The notes beneath the pieces are model-generated. The model was not told the origin of the DNA and searched no databases. It saw only the letters and a list, made by a program, of their open reading frames with translations. Shown here in pieces: positions 847 through 58,552 of a DNA stretch of 64,000 nt (positions within the stretch are counted from its first letter, which is position 1; every line of letters starts with the position of its first letter). Location of the stretch: assembly GCA_964585925.1 (NCBI GenBank), contig CAZPFS010000003.1:17619-81618 (forward strand). The letters run 5' to 3'. This stretch comes from an uncultured Syntrophomonadaceae bacterium. Its GTDB lineage: Bacteria > Bacillota > Dethiobacteria > DTU022. The translations under genes were made by a program, and so were the position numbers.

Positions 847-1056
847 GGGGATAGACCTATCTTGCAGGTCTGTCCCCATACCCTATACTTCCAACCGGGA
901 ACAATCCCATCTGGCAAGTCCGTTCCCATACACCCAATCGGGGATAGACCCATCCGGCAGGTATGTCCCCATACATCCAACCGAGGACAGACCCATCCGG
1001 CAGGTATGTCCCCATACATCCAATCGGGGACAGACCTATCTTGCAGGCCTGTCCCC
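847..1056. repeat. REP-like array of five palindromic hairpin units (ggggaYagacc-N9-ggtMtgtcccc) spaced about 42-51 bp, between purM and the hppA 3' end
   Basis: Units at 847-877, 898-927 (degenerate), 940-970, 985-1013 and 1026-1056. Each unit has 10-11 bp inverted arms with a 9-nt loop, separated by atacatccaatc-type linkers. Confidence 0.8.
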
Positions 1057-1061
1057 AGACC

Positions 1062-3180: not shown

Positions 3181-4578
3181 CTACTTGGGTCTGCCCGCCG
3201 GGTAATCCCCGCCAAAACAGGACCAGCAGAGATGCTCCGCCGGCAGGCCGATGGCCTCCGCCACCCCCTGCGGGCTTAAAAAGCCTACCGAGTCGGCCTC
3301 GATCATTTGGGCCACCTCTTCGGCGGTGCGGTTTGCCAGCATCAGCTCCTCATCGCCGGGCATGTCAATGCCGTAATAGCAGGACGAAACGACCGGGGGA
3401 GAGCTAATCCTCAGGTGCACTTCTTTAGCCCCCGCCCGGCGCATCAGCCGGACCAGTTTTAAGCTGGTGGTGCCCCGAACAATGGAGTCGTCCACCAGAA
3501 CCACCTTCTTGTTCTGAACGATTTTCTGCACCGCATTGAGCTTGATGTCAGTTCCCCGTTCCCGGAGTTCCCGGGTGGGTTTGATAAAAACCCTTCCTAT
3601 GTATCGGTTTTTCACCAGGGCCATCTCGTTGGGCAGACCCAGTTGCTCGGCATATCCGGAGGCGGCGGAAATGCTGGAATCGGGAACCCCGGAGACCAGG
3701 TCCGCCTCCACCGGCTGTTCCCGGGCCAGCCGACGGCCCAGTTCCCGGCGCACCAGATGAACATTTTTCCCCTGCAGGTTGCTGTCCGGGCGGGCAAAAT
3801 AAATATATTCAAACACACAGAAAGCGGAACGGAAGCTGCTCACCAGCTGCCGGGAATGCATCCCTTCGCGGTCAAGCACCACCATCTCCCCCGGGTTGAC
3901 ATCCCGGATAAATGCAGCCCCCATGGTATCAAAAGCACAGGTTTCGGAGGCCAGATAGTAGCCTTTCTCACCCAAGGCGGCCAGTGATAAGGGGCGGAAA
4001 CCGTAGCCGTCCCGCAGGCCGATCACCTTTTGTCCGTCGGTAATCACAAAACTAAAGGCGCCTTTGAGCAGGGGCACCACTTGCGCCAGCGCTTCTTCCA
4101 GATCGGGGGCGCCCTGGCGGGCAATCAGATGAGCCAACAGCTCGCTGTCGGTGCGGGTCTGAAAAATGGCCCCTTTCGCCTCCAGCTCGGATCTGAGCCG
4201 GGATCCGTTCAAAAGTCGGCCGTTGTGGCCGACAGCCAGTTCCCCAAAACGGTACCTGAGCACAAGGGGTTGGCTGCTCTCCAGGCGGCGATCTTCTCCC
4301 TGATACGAATAACGGACATGTCCCACCGCGGCGCGGCTGGAAATGGTCTTTAAATCGGTAATCTTTGCAAACACTTCGGAAACCAGGCCCAGCCCCCGGT
4401 GGTGCCACAACCGCCCCCCCCGGCCGTCTCCGGCAGCAATCCCGGCACTCTCCTGCCCGCGATGCTGGAGGGCGTACAGGGCCAGGCAGGTCAGGTAGGC
4501 CAGCGGCAGCCCGGTGGCATAACCGCCACAGATGCCGCAGGCCTCGCGCAGCATTGGATAATCTAACTCATCAGGCAC
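3181..4578 (-). CDS. purF: Amidophosphoribosyltransferase (glutamine PRPP amidotransferase)
   Basis: Propeptide then the catalytic Cys (..MLREACGICGGYAT..), a PRTase motif VVLVDDSIVRGTT, and a C-terminal 4Fe-4S Cys cluster (CWSCFGGDYP). Confidence 0.9.
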   Translation of the reverse strand: MPDELDYPMLREACGICGGYATGLPLAYLTCLALYALQHRGQESAGIAAGDGRGGRLWHHRGLGLVSEVFAKITDLKTISSRAAVGHVRYSYQGEDRRLESSQPLVLRYRFGELAVGHNGRLLNGSRLRSELEAKGAIFQTRTDSELLAHLIARQGAPDLEEALAQVVPLLKGAFSFVITDGQKVIGLRDGYGFRPLSLAALGEKGYYLASETCAFDTMGAAFIRDVNPGEMVVLDREGMHSRQLVSSFRSAFCVFEYIYFARPDSNLQGKNVHLVRRELGRRLAREQPVEADLVSGVPDSSISAASGYAEQLGLPNEMALVKNRYIGRVFIKPTRELRERGTDIKLNAVQKIVQNKKVVLVDDSIVRGTTSLKLVRLMRRAGAKEVHLRISSPPVVSSCYYGIDMPGDEELMLANRTAEEVAQMIEADSVGFLSPQGVAEAIGLPAEHLCWSCFGGDYPAGRPK

Positions 4579-44807: not shown

Positions 44808-44920
44808 CTTTTCACCTCGTTTGCCTTGAACAGCTTTTGCTCACAAAATCTTGCCCAAATCCTGAAAGCGCGACCATGATCGTTATTTGTTTGTAAGCAT
44901 AACGGTCTTAAAAAAAATAT

Positions 44921-45715
44921 TCAGGGCAGGAAATGCAACACCGCCTCCAGCACACCTCCTCCCACGGCTCGGGCCTTGTCGGAGATGGACCGGAAGTCAA
45001 CCTCCGCCCCTCGGGGATCTACATCTCCCACCTTCATTCCCTTGCTTGCCGGGAGGCCATTATAGAGCAGACCCCGCACCAGACCGTCGGTTCCCGCCGC
45101 CACGGGAATGCGGCCTACCTCCGCCACCGGCTGGCCCGTTTCAACCAAATCGCCAATTTTGACCAGAGCTTTGAATATCCCATCCGCCGGCGCCCGGAGA
45201 AGCCTTCCCGCCGCCACCCCGGAAACCCCCCCCGGAATACCGGTATTTTCGGCAGCGCTTCCCTGGTAATATACTTTTCCCAGATCGTGCCCGCGCTTGG
45301 TCTCTATTACGGCGTGAACCTCCTGCCCGGCTTCAAATCCCGGCCCCAGTCCGATTACCACCCGGGCATCGCCGATCCTGGTGGTGGTGGCTGTTTTGGC
45401 CATTACCGCATCCACCAGCACCTCCGGCTGAAGTTTCTGCACCAGGCAAGACTCCGGATCGATCAGCACTGCTATCTCCCGGCCATCGATCACCCGGTAA
45501 GCCTCCTCCGCCGTGGCACAAAGCCTGGCCCGAACCCCTTCCACCTCAAAAAGCCCTTCATACACTGCCGAGGAAAAGGCTACTGTGCGCCTCACTGTGA
45601 GGGGCCGGGGAAGTTCCAGCATGATCTGCCGGAAACCGGCCCTGTGCAGGCGGTGTGCCACCCCCGAAGCCAGGTCCCCCGCTCCCCTGATAATTACCGT
45701 CTGTGAAAATTTCAT
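44921..45715 (-). CDS. Rossmann-like SDMH accessory protein (YqeB / EF2563-family-like, TIGR03309-type)
   Basis: 264 aa. N-terminus VIIRGAGDLASGVAHRLHRAGF. It is the first gene of the minus-strand accessory operon, and its family assignment is from memory. The plus-strand ORF 44933..45706 is judged to be the antisense artefact. Confidence 0.5.
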   Translation of the reverse strand: MKFSQTVIIRGAGDLASGVAHRLHRAGFRQIMLELPRPLTVRRTVAFSSAVYEGLFEVEGVRARLCATAEEAYRVIDGREIAVLIDPESCLVQKLQPEVLVDAVMAKTATTTRIGDARVVIGLGPGFEAGQEVHAVIETKRGHDLGKVYYQGSAAENTGIPGGVSGVAAGRLLRAPADGIFKALVKIGDLVETGQPVAEVGRIPVAAGTDGLVRGLLYNGLPASKGMKVGDVDPRGAEVDFRSISDKARAVGGGVLEAVLHFLP

Positions 45716-45743: not shown

Positions 45744-45774
45744 TTGTCGCCATGGGGATAGGCCTGGGCTTAAG
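45744..45774. repeat. Solitary degenerate REP-like unit (ggggataggcctgggcttaagatatgtcccc)
   Basis: It shares the ggggatag... / ...atgtcccc arms with the units at 940-970 and 985-1013. Confidence 0.5.
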
Positions 45775-45809
45775 ATATGTCCCCGCGATTTGGTAACCCC
45801 TATTTGTTT

Positions 45810-46100
45810 TCCTTTGAGTAAATCCCTTTAAATCCCCCTAAATCCCCCTTTAAAAAAGGGGGACTTTTTCGGCTGCCCCTTTAAAAAAGGATGCCTCTTG
45901 GATTATCATCTGGAATAAATTGCCTCACTGCCCTTTTAAAAAGGGATACCTTTTTTGGCTTATCACTTATCATTTAAAATGAATTGCCTCACCTTGCTCT
46001 TTTATTAATAAGAAGGATTTGTTTTGCTTACTCCTTAAAAAGACTTAATTGCCTCACCTTGCCCTTTTATGGGGGGACTTTTTCGGCTGCCCCTTTAAAA
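45810..46100. repeat. Repeat-dense AT-rich intergenic block with about six copies of the inverted repeat CCCCTTT-AAA-AAAGGGG, two copies of gggggactttttcggctg, three copies of aattgcctcacYtg, and a triple aaatcccYtt direct repeat
   Basis: Copies at 45834-45852, 45866-45880, 45921-45935, ~45990-46006 (degenerate), 46051-46066 (variant) and 46083-46097. It lies upstream of the SDMH accessory operon and downstream of the xdh operon. Confidence 0.7.
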
Positions 46101-46151
46101 AAGGGGGCCGGCTTCTTTCATTTTTATCCCTTTCGCCGTAAATCTAAAAAT

Positions 46152-46177
46152 CCCTGCCCCTTGGCCAAGGGGCAGGG
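46152..46177 (-). terminator. Rho-independent terminator of the xdh operon (and possibly bidirectional)
   Basis: Perfect 11-bp stem ccctgcccctt-ggcc-aaggggcaggg, followed on the minus strand by aTTTTT and on the plus strand by a T-rich run. It lies 15 nt past the Mo-subunit stop. Confidence 0.75.
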
Positions 46178-46192
46178 ACCACAAAATATTGT

Positions 46193-48574
46193 TTATTTTT
46201 GATCCTTGATCGCCTGCAGCACCCTTTCCGGAGTCAGGGGGAAGGTAGTCAACTCGATCCCTATCGCGTCGGCTACTGCGTTGGCAATGGCGGGACCAAC
46301 GGCAATCATAGGTTGCTCACCGATCCCGCGCACCCCAAAGGGACCGTCTTTTTCCGGTGTTTCCAAGGCAAATCCCTTTAGATAAGGGGTGTTCTCAATA
46401 GTTGGTATCTTGTAGTCGGTAAAGTTCGGATTTAAAATTCGGCCTTGGTCCAACTTGATCTCCTCATAAAGGGCGGTCCCCAGACCCATAATAGTCCCCC
46501 CGTGGATCTGAACCAGGCATTGCTGCGGGTTTACCGCCTGCCCCACATCCAGAGCCGTGGCCAACTGCAGGACAGTGATTTCACCAGTTTCCGGGTCTAC
46601 CTCCACCTCGGCTGCAGTAGCTCCAAAGGTCCAGAACATGCCTGGATTCCCCTGCCCGGTTTCGGGATCAAGATTGGTCATCTTGGAAGGAATATATGAT
46701 CCCCGGCCGATGATCGGCCCATGGATCCCCTCGCCGGTAGGCTTTTTATAGCTGTCGGCCAGGATTCTCAAAGGAACCTGTTTCGATCGGTCCTTTTTCC
46801 AGTATACCGTGTCATCTTCCAGTTCCATTTCCCCGGCCGGCACCCCCAGCTCCAGTGAACCCAGTTCCAGTATCTGCCGGCGGGCATCTTCCGCGGCCTT
46901 TATCACCGCATGCCCCAAAGCATAGGTGGTCCGGCTGCCTACGGTCTGCCACTCGTAGGGACTGTAATCGGTATCGGGAATACGGATGGCAAATTTCTCC
47001 ACCGGGATTTTCAATGTTTCAGCGGCAATCTGGCACATGGCGGTCAGCATGCCCTGCCCCATCTCGGTTGCGCTTACCGAAAGATGAACGGTACCGTCCT
47101 CATTAATCCGGATAATCGCCGAGGAGGAAGCATTGCTGGGCTGGGCCGGCGCTTTCACCAGACCGGCCAGACCTTTTCCGCGGAATTTCCCGCTATCCCG
47201 CTTACGCCACTCCACCGCTTCGGCTGCCGTCCGCAGGCAGTTCATAAAAGATGAATCCTCTATTTTCTGTCCGGTAGCGGTAGTGGATCCCTCTTTCATT
47301 CCATTGAGGAGACGCACATCCAGCGGGTCCAGTCCCAGTTTTTTAGCAATTTCATCCATTTGCCGTTCAATGCCCCACTGCATCTCGCACATGCCAAAGC
47401 CCCGCACCGGGCCGCCTACCGGGTTGTTGGTATAAACACAATAAGAATCCGTCTTGATATTTGGAATATCATACGCCCCGGCAGAGCTGTAAGCCGCCGC
47501 TCGGGTAATATTTACACCATATTCGGTGTAAGCCCCCCCGTCCCAGATCATTTTGTACTCCATGGCCGTGATCCGGCCATCTTTGCGCACCCCGGTTTTC
47601 AGGTGGCCATACATCGCCTGGCGGGTAAAAGTGCACTGCATATCTTCTTCCCGGGTGTACACTACGCGCACGATGTATCCGGGGCATTTTCTGGCCAGGG
47701 GTATAACCAGCCCCTCCATGGTGGCCCCGGCTTTGCCGCCGAACCCGCCGCCGATATAACTGGAAACGACTCTAATTTTGTGCAGGGGCATCCCCAGACA
47801 TTTGGCCAACAGTTGCCGCACGGTAAACGGAGACTGGGCGGTGCTCCAGACCGTCAACTTACCGTCAAAGCCCCATAGAGCGGCCGCTTTATGGGTTTCT
47901 ATGGTCACATGCTGCATCTGAGGAACATAGTAATCCCCTTCGATGATCAGATCTGCCTCGGCAAATCCCTCTTCCACATTCCCTTTGCGGATTTTGCTGT
48001 GATTGCTGATGTTTGTTCCCGCTTCAGGGTAAAAAATAGGAACAACCTCGTAGCTCCCCAGATCCTCATGAATCAATGGCGCGCCGGGTTTCATCGCCTC
48101 CAGGGGATTGAATACCGCCGGAAGTTCTTCGTATTCCACCTGGATCAGATCTACAGCCTGTTGGGCTATATCTTCCGTGGTGGCAGCAACCGCGGCCAGC
48201 GGTTCTCCGAAAAAGCGGACCTTATCCACGGCAAAGAAAGTCCGGTCAACCAGATAAAGCCCCACCCGGTTACGGGAACATTCTTTCCCGGTCGCTACTG
48301 CCCTTACGCCCGGCAAAGCCTCCGCCCGGCTGGTATCTATCCGTTTTATCCGGCCGTGGGGGATAGTCGATTTTTTAATTTTGGCATAAAGCATGGGGGC
48401 CATGCTCAGATCCTCAATATATCTGGCACTGCCGGTCACCTTTTCCTCCGCTTCTATCCGGGAATATGTTTTCCCCACATAGGTTAAGGATGGCATATTT
48501 TCTCCTCCTTTCCTCCTTACTTGGAGCAGGCTTTGATCGCCTGCCGGATTTCCTGATAGGCCCCGCAACGGCAC
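46193..48574 (-). CDS. Xanthine dehydrogenase-family molybdopterin-binding large subunit (purine hydroxylase, SDMH context). The probable start is ATG at 48496 ([11 protein letters not shown]..).
   Basis: Aldehyde-oxidase/xanthine-dehydrogenase a/b hammerhead and MoCo-binding domains across ~770 aa. Strong RBS AGGAGGAGAAAAT before 48496. Confidence 0.85.
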
Positions 48575-55074: not shown

Positions 55075-55320
55075 TTAAACCTCCCAGATCAATTGTGCAG
55101 CTGCAAACCCGCTCCCGCTGCCAATTCCAATCATAACACCCGGGGCTGGAGGTCTGGAATTAATTTTCTATTGTTAATATTATATGCAAGCAGAGGCTCT
55201 TCCTTTAGTTTATATAACCAAATCGCAGGTAATTGTTTGTGTAAACAATACAAATAATATATTGACAAATGGTTTTTTCCCTGCTACTGTTTAGTTGCCC
55301 AATCATATCCGGAGGTGCCT

Positions 55321-57028
55321 GATGAAAAAACAGTACGGTATTACCGTGGAGGAAGCGCTCACTCTGGAAGTTGTAAACCGCCTCAATGTGGTCGGAGGAG
55401 GCCAGGGGCTGGAGCGTGTAATCAAACTGGTAAATGTTATCGAAGCACCCGATATTATGGACTGGGTTTTGGAAGGAGAATTTTTACTTACTACCGGTTA
55501 CTCATTCCGAGAATTCCCGGAGTTGATGACCATGCTGGTGGCCAAAATGGCCCAAGCCAACAGTGCCGGGCTGGCCATCAAGCCCAAGCGGTTTATCAAA
55601 GAAATTCCACCCGATTTGATTGCCAGCGCCGACCGGAACGGTATTCCCCTGCTGGAAGTACCCTACGATCTTTCTTTTTCAGAGATTATCGCCCCCATTT
55701 TGGGGGTCATTGCCAGCAAACAAAACCAGGTCCTGCAAAAGTTGGAACAGGGTAACCGTAAACTGACGGAGATGATGCTTCACGGCAGCACCCTTGGGGA
55801 TCTGTGTTACGAAACTTCCCTGCTCATCCATAACCCGGTAGCCATCATGGATATGGACGGGAAACTATACACCAGCCCGCTGTGTCCGAACAAAGAACAG
55901 TTTGAACTGTTTTTTTCCAAGGACAGCATTGAAGTAAAGAATGACAAGCTGCGTTTCGGCAATATCAAAGAGATCAAGTATTCCATGGAGTCCACTCCCG
56001 GGAAAGACATACCGGGTACCCTGCAGGCGGTTCGGATCCCCATTGTCGCCGACAAATCAGATTATGGGGATATTTACTGCATAATCAACAACCCGATCAG
56101 CGAACCGGATATATTGTTATTGGAAAGGGCCGCCACTATAGCCGCCCTTGAATTTACCAAACGCAAGGCTGTTTTTGAAATAGAAAAAAACTATCATAAT
56201 GAATTTTTGGAAATTTTGCTGTCATACGACTCTGAAAATGAGGATGAAATTATCAGGCGTGCCGGCAGGTTCAATCTCAATCTTCAAAAACCGACCGCGG
56301 TTATAATCATCAATGATCAGTGGGAAAGCAAGGAGCGGGATTTGATCCCGGTTTCCTTGAAAGGCATGAACGAACAGACCGCCAAGGAGCAGCTGTTGAC
56401 CATGATCCACAGCTTCAAGGGACTGCCCGACTGCAACCATTTGTTTGTGGGGATAAAAGGTGCGTATATTATTGTGGTGGTCCAACTGTGCGAGGAAACC
56501 CCTTCCGACAATTTGAAACATGTTGTTTCCAGCCTGTTGAATTTTCTGACCGTGAAAGCCGGTTTAAAAAACAACCATTATATCAAATTCGGAGTTGGCC
56601 GGCCGGGAGAGGGAATCGCCAATATCAAGCGGAGTTACCGGGAAGCCTGGGAGGCCCTCAGAATCGGACTCTTTTCCAACAAATCTTCGGTGATGTATTT
56701 TGACGATCTGGGTTTTTTTAAAATTTTGAGCGAAAAGAGCAGGCATGAGCTGGCAAAATTTGTAGATGAACTGCTTTATCCGGTGCTGGAATATGACCGG
56801 CAAAAAAACGGTGAACTGCTAAAAACACTGCAAACTTATTTTGAAACGAACCGTAATTTCAAGCTTACCTCCCAAAAGATATTTACTCATTACAATACCA
56901 TTTTGTACCGGATAAGAAAGGTTGAAGAGTTGACCGGGATCAGCCTGAATAATCCCGAAGATTCCCTGAATGCAGAAATTGCGGTAAATATTCATAAACT
57001 GCTGCGCTCCGGCAAAAGCGGGCCCTAA
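55321..57028 (+). CDS. PucR/CdaR-family purine catabolism transcriptional regulator. The start is likely ATG at 55321 (MKKQYGITVEE..).
   Basis: N-terminal PucR domain and the C-terminal PucR-type HTH (..TSQKIFTHYNTILYRIRKVEELTGISL). RBS GGAGGTG before 55321. Confidence 0.8.
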
Positions 57029-57056
57029 GCAATTGGCAAAGCCTTTCACCATTTGT

Positions 57057-57095
57057 CCCCAATTTTAAGGGGTTGCCTCATTTCGAGACAACCCC
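57057..57095. terminator. Bidirectional terminator between the convergent pucR-like and permease genes
   Basis: Two overlapping hairpins, ccccaattttaagggg and ggggttgcctcatttcgagacaacccc, in a 105-nt convergent gap. Confidence 0.55.
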
Positions 57096-57133
57096 TGATT
57101 CCTGCTGATTACCCAAACACCTTGACCCAGGTA

Positions 57134-58552
57134 TTAACCGCTCACCGCTTCGGATTTTGCGGCTTCTTCATCGTGAATATAAGCGGTGATCCCGCGTTCG
57201 GCATCGGTGCCCGGAATAATATTATCCAGGATCAAGCCCAGAACTGCCGCTACCGCCATGCTGGTAGAGCAGATAGTGGTGATGATATCCGCCAACCAGG
57301 GCGCCCCTTCAATGACGATATTGGCGTCCGCAATATAGACCGGGACGCTCAAACCCATAAACAGGGAGAACCCGACGATCATTAGGTTGCGCATGGAGCT
57401 CATGTCTGCTTTGGCGGTATTGCTGAGGCCTACCGATGAAATAAGGCCAAACAGCGTGCAGTACAGAGCGCCGACAATGGGCTGGGGAATGGTGGCCACC
57501 AGGCCTCCAAATTTTCCTAAAATGCCCAGAACTACAAACACCACGGCGGCCACGTTAACCACATAGCGGCTGGCCACCTTGGTCAGACCTACCAGCCCGA
57601 TATTTTCGGTATAACTGGTGCTGGCAAAACCACCAAAGATACCGGAGAACAAGCAGCCCACACCCTCAAACCCGATTCCCCGGTTGATCTGTTTTGGAGT
57701 GGGCCTGCCTACTCCCGCCGCGGCGGCAATGGCGTGATAATCGCCGTAGGATTCAATAATCGAACCCAGATAACCGGCTAGAATTATCAGGAAGAAACTA
57801 AAACTAAATTTTGGCAATCCCCAAGGGAAGATAATTTTCCAGCGGACCCAGTCCGCCACCTTTACGGCCGTAAAATCTACAAAGCCGGGGTTTGCCGGAT
57901 CGAAGACACCGGTAACGGAGCAGATCACCGCCACCAGATAACCGATTACCACCGCCAGCAACACCGGGAACAGAGCAAAGAAAGGTTTTTTGGGGCCGAT
58001 AATCAGCGAGAACAAGAAGCACAAAATCATTACCAGTATGGAGATGGGCCAGTTCCCACCGGCCCAGGGCGCACCCACACTGTACAGAGCCAACCCGATC
58101 AAGCAAATAACCGGGCCGATAACCACCGGAGTTACTATTCTTTGAAGCTTACCAATGATTCCTGTAAAACCAACTAAAATTTCTACCAGCGCGCCCAGAA
58201 TAATAGCTCCGTTTATGTACGTCATGGTTATCGGTCCGCCTCCGGCAGCAGCGGTAGCAGCTATAATGCCGAAGAAAGGCCCTAAAAATGCAAACGATAC
58301 CCCTTGGACGATGGGGAGCCTGGTGCCGAAGTTAACCTGAAAGAACGTGGCCACCCCGGAAGCAAGCATTGCACAGGCCACCATCACCGAGGTCTGGTAG
58401 GGATCCATCCCTATTGTGGCTGCCAAGAGCAAGGGCACGGCAACCGTGGCCCCAAACATGGTCAGCATGTGCTGAAACGCCAGACCCAGTGATTTGATAA
58501 ATGGTTTAGGAATATCATCCAGTGTGTATATCATTTTTTCTGCATCCAACAC
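57134..58552 (-). CDS. Nucleobase:cation symporter-2 (NCS2) family xanthine/uric-acid-type permease
   Basis: 472 aa with ~13 TM helices and the NCS2 signature LGLAFQHMLTMFGATVAVP. Confidence 0.85.
   Translation of the reverse strand: MLDAEKMIYTLDDIPKPFIKSLGLAFQHMLTMFGATVAVPLLLAATIGMDPYQTSVMVACAMLASGVATFFQVNFGTRLPIVQGVSFAFLGPFFGIIAATAAAGGGPITMTYINGAIILGALVEILVGFTGIIGKLQRIVTPVVIGPVICLIGLALYSVGAPWAGGNWPISILVMILCFLFSLIIGPKKPFFALFPVLLAVVIGYLVAVICSVTGVFDPANPGFVDFTAVKVADWVRWKIIFPWGLPKFSFSFFLIILAGYLGSIIESYGDYHAIAAAAGVGRPTPKQINRGIGFEGVGCLFSGIFGGFASTSYTENIGLVGLTKVASRYVVNVAAVVFVVLGILGKFGGLVATIPQPIVGALYCTLFGLISSVGLSNTAKADMSSMRNLMIVGFSLFMGLSVPVYIADANIVIEGAPWLADIITTICSTSMAVAAVLGLILDNIIPGTDAERGITAYIHDEEAAKSEAVSG

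Follow-up and report, generated by a model that had tools for sequence, protein, structure and literature searches.

Between the xdh genes, which encode a molybdenum (Mo) hydroxylase, and yqeB, the first gene of the accessory operon for selenium-dependent Mo hydroxylases, the genome of an uncultured Syntrophomonadaceae bacterium (Bacillota) carries a block of short palindromes and direct repeats. Our analysis of this block within its contig, over a stretch of 64,000 nucleotides (hereafter the window), suggests that it is a lineage-specific insertion, in which a repeat module of the BoxC/PIT (potential intrastrand triplex) class, or a pair of such modules, was amplified to four tandem hairpin units whose inner copies have decayed. 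We put the probability of this reading at roughly 0.7. A preliminary description of the same DNA had offered an operator array, a string of small RNA hairpins or a decayed mini-repeat element, and the insertion, the unit alignment and the family membership indicate that the last of these was essentially right.

A lineage-specific insertion built of four tandem units

Three relatives, whose YqeB homologues are 83%, 80% and 79% identical to that of the window, share its gene order: xdh FAD, FeS and Mo subunits, yqeB, the MoCF gene, xdhC, HTH_1 and yqeC/mocA. Their xdh–yqeB spacer measures 83-100 bp, that is, the terminator and about 60 nt, as against 477 bp in the window, where the repeats are confined to the spacer. 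When the window spacer was aligned with those of the relatives (L002, L010 and L008), one gap of about 380 columns opened, and what all of them share is the terminator, a stretch with GGCGAAA and, ahead of the yqeB ATG, the final ~40 nt. One relative lineage is represented by six contigs, and the block is missing from every one of them. No precursor of the motif was found in the relatives' empty sites. Because relatives of the same synteny combine the 83-100 bp spacer with the shared flanks, the comparison of these sequences shows about 370 bp of the window spacer to be a lineage-specific insertion. The xdh terminator, which is kept in the relatives, lies outside it.

The assembly supports the edges of the block. 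We compared the window with a Logan assembly made independently from the same sample (SRR8925753), which breaks at or beside both copies of a 33-nt exact repeat: contig L001 ends at 45859 and L138 inside the second copy. We attribute these breaks to the short k-mer of that assembly, which we take to be k=31. With the breaks at the 33-nt repeats, the edges of the block are confirmed by two assemblies.

The repeats noticed in the preliminary description are real and far above chance, and its account of them can be confirmed in part. The palindrome CCCTTTWAAAAAGGG is found without mismatch at 45846, 45931 and 46091 and with a single one at 45877. With up to two mismatches it gives 12 matches against 0.92 expected, a count reached in 0/100 shuffles, and all of them fall inside the block except two weak ones. 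Instead of about six palindromes, we count four that are well formed, an imperfect one at 46062 (CCCTTTTATGGGGGG) and two decayed positions (45996-46016 and 46031-44). Their centres are 31, 54 and 160 bp apart, an irregular spacing that contradicts the regular array described earlier. The RNA hairpin energies range widely (in kcal/mol: hairpin A, -13.1; F, -11.8/-8.6; C at 45931-45945, -5.9/-5.1; the imperfect hairpin E, -5.9/-3.4; B, -2.8/-3.1; the two decayed positions, about 0). The leader AATTGCCTCAC is indeed exact three times (45918, 45982 and 46047, spaced by 64 and 65 bp), but of the three palindromes said to follow it only the one at 45931 is good. Two copies had been said to share another preceding sequence, and this is GGGGGACTTTTTCGGCTG at 45858 and 46072, which lies each time within the 33-nt duplicate GGGGGACTTTTTCGGCTGCCCCTTTAAAAAAGG. 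Likewise, the triple direct repeat aaatcccYtta is TAAATCCCCC, present in 3.1 tandem copies at 45819-45849.

End-to-end alignment resolves the block into four units in tandem, 64-92 nt long and with two hairpin positions apiece, at a mean column identity of 65%, and on this alignment the tandem structure is shown. In a unit, a leader of ~15 nt precedes hairpin 1, and a T-rich linker (ACTTTTTCGGCTG or a variant) joins this to hairpin 2, after which comes a variable tail. The leader of unit U1, AAATCCCCCTAAATC, aligns with AATTGCCTCACCTTG of U2-U4, and its AAATCCCCCTAAATCCCCC with AATTGCCTCACCTTGCCC of U2-U4. Preservation is best in the outer units, which have the 33-nt identity in common; the inner ones have decayed apart from the identical leader. 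The coordinates are collected in Table 1.

Table 1. Coordinates of the block, its parts, its neighbours and the DUF559 genes of related loci
Feature	Position	Strand	Description	Basis
Lineage-specific insertion	45757-46128		About 370 bp, boundaries imprecise	Alignment against empty sites in relatives
Unit U1	45826-45917	+	Triple-arm module, ACTTTTTCGGCTG linker, weak second hairpin CCCCTTTAAAAAAGG (45876-45890), tail	Unit alignment, repeat families D1-D4
Unit U2	45918-45981	+	AATTGCCTCAC leader, hairpin CCCTTTTAAAAAGGG (45931-45945), T-rich linker, second hairpin decayed	Unit alignment
Unit U3	45982-46046	+	AATTGCCTCACCTTG leader intact, both hairpin positions decayed (45996-46016, 46031-46044)	Unit alignment, repeat families D4, D5
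Unit U4	46047-46125	+	AATTGCCTCACCTTG leader, imperfect hairpin CCCTTTTATGGGGGG (46062-46076), linker, strong hairpin GCCCCTTTAAAAAAGGGGGC (46089-46108)	Unit alignment
33-nt exact repeat GGGGGACTTTTTCGGCTGCCCCTTTAAAAAAGG, first copy	45858-45890	+		Sequence
33-nt exact repeat GGGGGACTTTTTCGGCTGCCCCTTTAAAAAAGG, second copy	46072-46104	+		Sequence
BoxC/PIT-type triple-arm module, complete	45820-45863	-		Sequence, family profile, triple-arm rule
Module arms (+ coordinates)	45820-29; 45831-39		Extra degenerate arm AAATCCCTTT; third arm AATCCCCCT	
Module hairpin (+ coordinates)	45840-42; 45843-51; 45852-54; 45855-63		Loop; TCCCCCTTT; loop; AAAGGGGGA	
xdh-type molybdenum hydroxylase large subunit	46193-48496	-	Upstream neighbour; 767 aa from ATG, good ribosome-binding site	Pfam/NCBIfam
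Intrinsic terminator of xdh operon	46149-46180	-	14-bp stem, U tail	-25.8 kcal/mol
yqeB (selenium-dependent Mo cofactor maturation)	44921-45715	-	Downstream neighbour	TIGR03309, E=7.3e-102
DUF559 gene, L020	274-660	-	Flanked by inverted triple-arm modules	
DUF559 gene, L073	1442-1867	+	Flanked by inverted triple-arm modules	
DUF559 gene, L082	8205-8561	-	Flanked by inverted triple-arm modules	
DUF559 gene, L112	1259-1640	+	Flanked by inverted triple-arm modules	
DUF559 gene, L150	2501-2884	+	Flanked by inverted triple-arm modules	

The coordinates agree with the position given in the preliminary description, between the xdh terminator and the accessory operon that begins with yqeB, read on the minus strand like every neighbour of the block. 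Its label of an AT-rich, repeat-dense region also stands, given the low GC content of the spacer (0.365-0.42, against about 0.55-0.63 in the flanks) and the repeat counts above chance. At the same locus, an extra open reading frame of 90-94 aa without a Pfam match lies between yqeB and the MoCF-domain gene in L002 (5882-6166) and L010 (1407-1679); it is missing in the window (44808-44920, a 113-nt gap) and in L008 (a 121-nt gap).

The unit 1 module and the BoxC/PIT class

Unit 1 contains the complete module. Read on the minus strand from 45863 to 45831, it is TCCCCCTTT-TTT-AAAGGGGGA-TTT-AGGGGGATT, a 9/3/9/3/9 geometry in which a C-arm and a loop are followed by the complementary G-arm, a 3-nt loop and the arm again; by inspection, nine G*G.C, A*A.T and T*A.T triads would be possible. 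A generic triple-arm rule detects it at 45832-45862. We also built a family profile from 98 partner copies that had not been selected by the search pattern, and this profile matches 45829-45864 at E=1.7e-9, its sole full-length match in 64 kb. On the other hairpins it matches the hairpin part only, with E=0.0024 at 46090-46107 and E=0.38 and 0.49 elsewhere.

Sequences close to the module are widespread. In a blastn search against plasmids, 45826-45868 matched intergenic DNA of many cyanobacterial and several Acinetobacter plasmids; 54 plasmid records, mainly from these two groups, are matched, the best at 93-95% identity over 37-43 nt, and 17 weak matches (E about 0.7) lie on Clostridium plasmids. 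The same query found no blastn match in 28 Gb of E. coli DNA (5,426 genomes), and the plasmid matches are therefore not compositional noise. At least 120 loci in metagenome contigs carry the core pattern, and one contig, L035, is identical to the window over 41 nt. The low-GC, cyanobacteria-like contigs have the form GATCCCCCTAAATCCCCCTTAAAAAGGGGGACTTTGA...TTCCCCCCTTTTTAAGGGGGGYTAGGGGGGATC, and contigs of 0.55-0.65 GC the form TTCCCCCCTTTTCTAAAGGGGGGCAGGGGGGATT-N14-18-AATCCCCCTAAATCCCCCTTTAAAAAAGGGGGACTT; L123, from the latter group, is Desulfobaccales-like, with a neighbouring protein 83-88% identical to its closest named homologues, and contigs of this kind carry the 29-nt core repeatedly. 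Only 19.6% of 189 module midpoints fall in open frames of >=120 aa, against a background of 79.5%. The copies are arranged as singles, as convergent or divergent inverted doublets and as tandem clusters (e.g. L045, L047, L114, L117 and L026). Judged by sequence, the membership of unit 1 in a multi-phylum triple-arm repeat family is thus shown.

The nearest described class is that of the E. coli BoxC elements, later named PIT elements or TMECO (Holder et al. 2015, PMC4666352, and earlier work of the Maher laboratory cited there). The TMECO pattern is the intrastrand triplex motif CCCTCNCCC-N3-6-GGGNGAGGG-N3-GGGNGAGGG, and the ITxF definition of the same paper asks for three triplex-compatible blocks in a row on the same strand, their stems being 6-15 nt and their loops 1-6 nt long (for TMECO, 9/3-6/9/3/9). 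The TM motifs are described there as always intergenic, often found as two sub-types in an inverted pair, highly abundant in some Enterobacteria and Cyanobacteria, and associated with rearrangement at their loci. The family of the window module resembles this class in its three blocks, 9-nt stems and 3-nt loops, intergenic position, singles and inverted pairs, cyanobacterial abundance and rearrangement-prone loci, and neither has an assigned function. Within the window array, the three consecutive blocks are present in unit 1 only. The module is intergenic, between the xdh terminator and yqeB; inverted pairs, of a 5-type and a 6-type module, are seen in related loci, whereas all units of the window are direct. 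The arms, C5T3/A3G5 instead of CCCTCNCCC, do not fit the TMECO consensus. As the architecture is the same and the sequence match to TMECO is missing, we file the window module, on sequence grounds, in the BoxC/PIT/TM class and not in the TMECO family. It differs further from described BoxC/PIT elements in being one complete module at the head of a four-unit direct array with locus-specific leader and linker, and in its host, a metagenome-assembled genome (MAG) of the Bacillota, a group not highlighted in PMC4666352.

Other classes of small repeats fit less well. Like repetitive extragenic palindromes (REPs), their mosaic clusters (bacterial interspersed mosaic elements, BIMEs) and their inverted doublets (REPINs), the copies of the family are short imperfect palindromes, intergenic and often placed after operon ends, and they form inverted doublets and mosaic clusters. 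In addition, a single small nuclease gene lies between inverted copies in related loci, as the REP-associated tyrosine transposase (RAYT) gene lies between REPs. However, REPs are defined by a GTAG or CGTC tetranucleotide tag at the palindrome end (PMC3733652), and inspection found neither tag adjacent to any hairpin of the block. The protein of the related loci is a PD-(D/E)XK nuclease of the DUF559 family and not a Y1 (IS200-like) transposase, and REP families are species-specific, whereas the module is nearly identical across phyla. MITEs (miniature inverted-repeat transposable elements such as Nezha, Correia/NEMIS, RUP and ERIC) are likewise small, non-coding and structured and have filled and empty sites, and cyanobacterial module pairs lie inside MITE-like elements. 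The window insertion nevertheless has no clear terminal inverted repeats (TIRs) or target-site duplication, at boundaries too diverged for a duplication to be read, and the inverted matches within the block (I1) derive from the palindromes only. The module pair also occurs in at least three TIR families and is therefore not defined by a transposase-specific TIR. The small dispersed repeats (SDRs) of Nostocaceae are comparable by description only, as very small cyanobacterial hairpin repeats, and many cyanobacterial module copies are GATC-bounded; as far as their description goes (Elhai et al. 2008), SDRs are hairpin-linked, 21-27 nt long, restricted to Nostocaceae and, by report, inserted at HIP1 (GCGATCGC). 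No relevant entry was found in the stem-loop paper of Petrillo (2006), and literature searches with module sequence strings returned primers only.

Several side observations concern related copies. A C5/C6 module pair, often GATC-bounded, is central in at least three MITE-like elements with unrelated TIRs: GAGGTTGTTTGAAAAGT... (L021, L024, L027 and L122), CTACCGTGTACACA... (L030, L063 and L129) and CCAATACGGTTCACTTAA... (L068, L075 and L085). The pair may insert into the centres of palindromes, or else these elements may have it in common as a building block. In two cyanobacterial loci, L012 (1540-1580) and L053 (around 3584-3660), the second hairpin of the pair is broken after CCCCCCTT(A/G)AAAAA by the same GCTATCCATTA..., and in L012 an IS4-family transposase gene comes next; the pattern suggests the centre of the module hairpin as a target of insertion sequences. 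On Acinetobacter plasmids, the pair lies downstream of the 3-oxoacid CoA-transferase B gene in both L011 (1501-1580) and L013 (940-1040), convergent in one case and divergent in the other, and in L011 it is immediately upstream of pcaF. Some Acinetobacter arms have changed on both sides (CCTCCC / GGAGGG).

Within the window, searches by blastn-short, profile hidden Markov model and regular expression found no further copies outside the block. The similar hairpin reported at 57057 does exist, but the family profile gives it no significant match (E=3.2). This hairpin, ccccaattttaagggg (57053-57100), lies between the convergent genes 55295-57028 (+) and 57134-58552 (-) and is directly followed by a second one, aggggttg...caacccct, which together read as an ordinary terminator region; the ttgcctca that it has in common with the block leader is probably a chance likeness. 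Elsewhere in the window (881-1057), a 43-nt tandem repeat, CCCCATACATCCAATCGGGGACAGACCCATCCGGCAGGTATGT, is present in 4.1 copies at 81% identity, each with a GGGGAYAGACC...GGTMTGTCCCC inverted repeat, at the edge of two overlapping long open reading frames.

DUF559 nuclease genes beside related modules

The block itself is ordinary repeat DNA, and the link of its family to DUF559 genes is an interesting by-product of the analysis. In two related loci (L020 and L073), the gene between two modules is a small DUF559 open reading frame (PF04480, E about 3e-28). A tblastn search found DUF559 genes in five of the ~120 module loci listed; modules flank or adjoin the gene in four of them, and in the fifth, L096, a mixed-sequence C/G hairpin stands in place of the module. 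Altogether, DUF559 frames with flanking modules were seen in L020, L073, L082, L112, L139, L142 and L150. The stop codon often lies inside the module. In L073, for example, the gene ends GAG ATC CCC CTA AAT CCC CCT TAA, where two C-arms are translated as ...EIPLNPP and the hairpin loop contains the stop. A motif of the type [IL]P[LP][NS]PP, typically ...IP(L/P)NPP and likewise encoded by two C-arms, is present close to the C-terminus in 84 of the 120 best cyanobacterial DUF559 homologues.

The association was also found from the side of the protein: in a search started from it, the DUF559 genes of Picosynechococcus and Pseudanabaena plasmids proved to be flanked by the same module type. Modules with other arm sequences flank DUF559 genes in Deinococcus, Sphingomonas, Neisseria, Photobacterium and Sinorhizobium, and no flanking module was seen at those of Azospirillum and Synechocystis B12. 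By a strict C-run rule, a triple-arm motif stands within 250 nt of 10 of 16 DUF559 genes. The Sphingomonas case is a Sphingomonas parapaucimobilis plasmid (L141, 365-775), where the DUF559 gene stands between sufB and sufC, with CCCCTCCCC...GGGGAGGGG hairpins upstream of it and inside its 3' end, and looks like a cassette inserted in the operon spacer.

In E. coli K-12, the DUF559 gene ycjD (NC_000913.3, 1351407-1351760) ends ...SPSP* inside CACCCTCTCCC, a C-arm. What follows (L149, 2760-2900) is its 3' end duplicated in part (GGAGACGGTGCTGGAGAATATTC...), with a degenerate motif, then a full TMECO-type motif and then fabI. This adjacency of TMECO and ycjD parallels that of C5 modules and DUF559 genes. 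BoxC was originally noted downstream of envM, another name of fabI. The paper by Holder and coworkers (PMC4666352) makes no mention of ycjD or of an endonuclease, and our literature search found no paper linking ycjD or DUF559 to BoxC.

These loci raise the possibility, which we advance tentatively and would not favour on present comparisons, that the BoxC/PIT/TM repeats are the repeat partner of a DUF559 (YcjD-type, Vsr-like PD-(D/E)XK) nuclease gene, in the manner of REP/REPIN and RAYT.

Readings of the block and their consequences

We consider that one module, or a module pair, would have entered the spacer by recombination or insertion. Local amplification by slipped-strand events or unequal recombination between the hairpin-bearing repeats may then have produced the array, the inner copies of which would have decayed afterwards. 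The block probably has no dedicated regulatory role; its hairpins, which are weak beside the real xdh terminator, might at most incidentally damp read-through or antisense transcription.

Several observations weigh against this account. A third arm is present in one of roughly seven hairpin positions, and the remaining ones give the family profile weak matches (E=0.0024 to 0.5). No second module was found in the 64-kb window, as against about 0.24 modules per kb in carrier contigs, and dispersal within the source genome is therefore unproven. The leader AATTGCCTCAC(C)TTG is perfectly kept in three units beside decaying hairpins, which neutral decay does not explain. All units have one orientation (loop asymmetry T3A6/T4A5 throughout), while the family usually forms inverted pairs. 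The interior of the block (45891-46071), and thus the copy number, rests on one assembly. The AATTGCCTCAC leader and the CGGCTG linker were found nowhere else in our collection scans. The hairpin plus tail pattern had 0 matches in metagenome contigs, and AATTGCCTCACN{0,2}TGCYCTTTTA had one chance-level match in the genome-contig collection, which does not include the source genome; four scans of viral sequences with block motifs gave 0 matches, and the phage collection gave one weak Lactococcus match and nothing else. As for the nuclease, no DUF559 gene or remnant was found in the block or window by tblastn, and the best six-frame hmmsearch value was E 0.13. Finally, the exact DUF559 protein P0232 occurs at one fixed locus across many samples with modules flanking it, and mobility is not shown; the locus is closer in this to a single-copy RAYT gene with REPs on both sides than to a gene that is actively hopping.

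Among the alternatives, we regard a purely local origin as improbable. The block would then have arisen by slippage of low-complexity C/G/A/T runs and resemble the family by convergence. The sequence is indeed of low complexity, TAAATCCCCC is itself a 10-nt tandem repeat, and the leader and linker are unique to the window locus. However, convergence would have to account for the 41-nt identity with L035 and for E=1.7e-9 against an independently built profile. The matches are, moreover, concentrated in particular taxa, with none in the 28 Gb of E. coli DNA, and the relatives' empty sites are without a motif precursor.

Quite improbable, too, is a cis-regulatory RNA or small-RNA array, whether as a C-/G-run attenuator in the yqeB leader or as plus-strand tiny genes with terminator-like ends. 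The minus-strand fold has a modest advantage over shuffles (z = -2.31), the plus strand holds six of the seven terminator-like sites (1.8 expected in total), and there is one promoter-like site at 45880-45909. The plus strand, however, folds no better than shuffles (z = -0.71), the copies differ by decay and not by compensatory change, and the block is missing from relatives with the same operon. An Rfam search with covariance models, as the preliminary description had suggested, returned no family at the gathering score in the window; with the threshold relaxed to E<=10, the best value in the region, E=0.12, is still well below gathering. At the gathering score the full doublets in 17 related loci gave no family either, and the proposed string of small RNA hairpins thus finds no Rfam support. 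Earlier work on PIT elements, as far as its summary in PMC4666352 goes, found no promoter or terminator activity.

Individual candidate signals were rejected as well. For a sigma-54 promoter at GGGCAAGGTGAGGCAATT, the -24 register that resembles TGGCA has its GC one base too soon, and the register in which the GG-N10-GC spacing is right matches little else; for ribosome-binding sites or small open reading frames at the AAGGTGAGG repeats, no start codon stands at a workable distance (all by inspection). Sigma-70 promoters had two overlapping matches against 0.9 expected.

It is very unlikely that the palindromes form the operator array first proposed, taken here as binding sites of a dimeric factor encoded nearby (HTH_1/ModE-like, a sigma-54 activator or PucR-like) that would control the yqeB accessory operon. 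The idea draws on 15-17-bp palindromes with GC clamps upstream of yqeB and on an HTH_1 frame and a Sigma54_activat protein encoded nearby, yet every site is missing from the relatives of the same gene order (L002-L008 and L010), which share the operon and the HTH_1 gene. The best site recurs with its flank in unrelated intergenic contexts of other phyla, 41 nt being identical in a metagenome contig. The sites are irregularly spaced, half of them are decayed, and there are no more copies in the 64 kb, which hold other purine and Mo genes. A degenerate orphan CRISPR array can be dismissed outright: despite the 64-65-bp period, the partly palindromic repeat and a ~24-nt segment conserved in three units, the whole units align with each other, so that the 'spacers' are homologous, the repeat length is not constant, no cas genes are among the neighbours, and the viral scans were empty.

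The interpretation as an amplified BoxC/PIT-class insertion removes a false regulatory lead for the xdh/yqeB locus, and the annotation that suits the block is repeat region, in place of operator or RNA gene. Since relatives do without it, the xdh and selenium-dependent Mo-hydroxylase accessory genes do not need the block. For the family, our findings extend the BoxC/PIT class to a Bacillota MAG and indicate a nearly invariant ~40-nt version that is common to several phyla. They also provide a clean case of filled and empty sites, with local amplification in tandem, in line with the instability reported for BoxC/PIT loci. Moreover, DUF559 becomes a concrete candidate enzyme for BoxC/PIT elements, whose origin, spread and function have been unclear since the 1990s. 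If the nuclease is their partner, the window block would be a non-autonomous, locally amplified relic, and horizontal spread of a nuclease-repeat system would account for the 41-mer being nearly identical in Bacillota, Desulfobaccales-like contigs, cyanobacteria and Acinetobacter.

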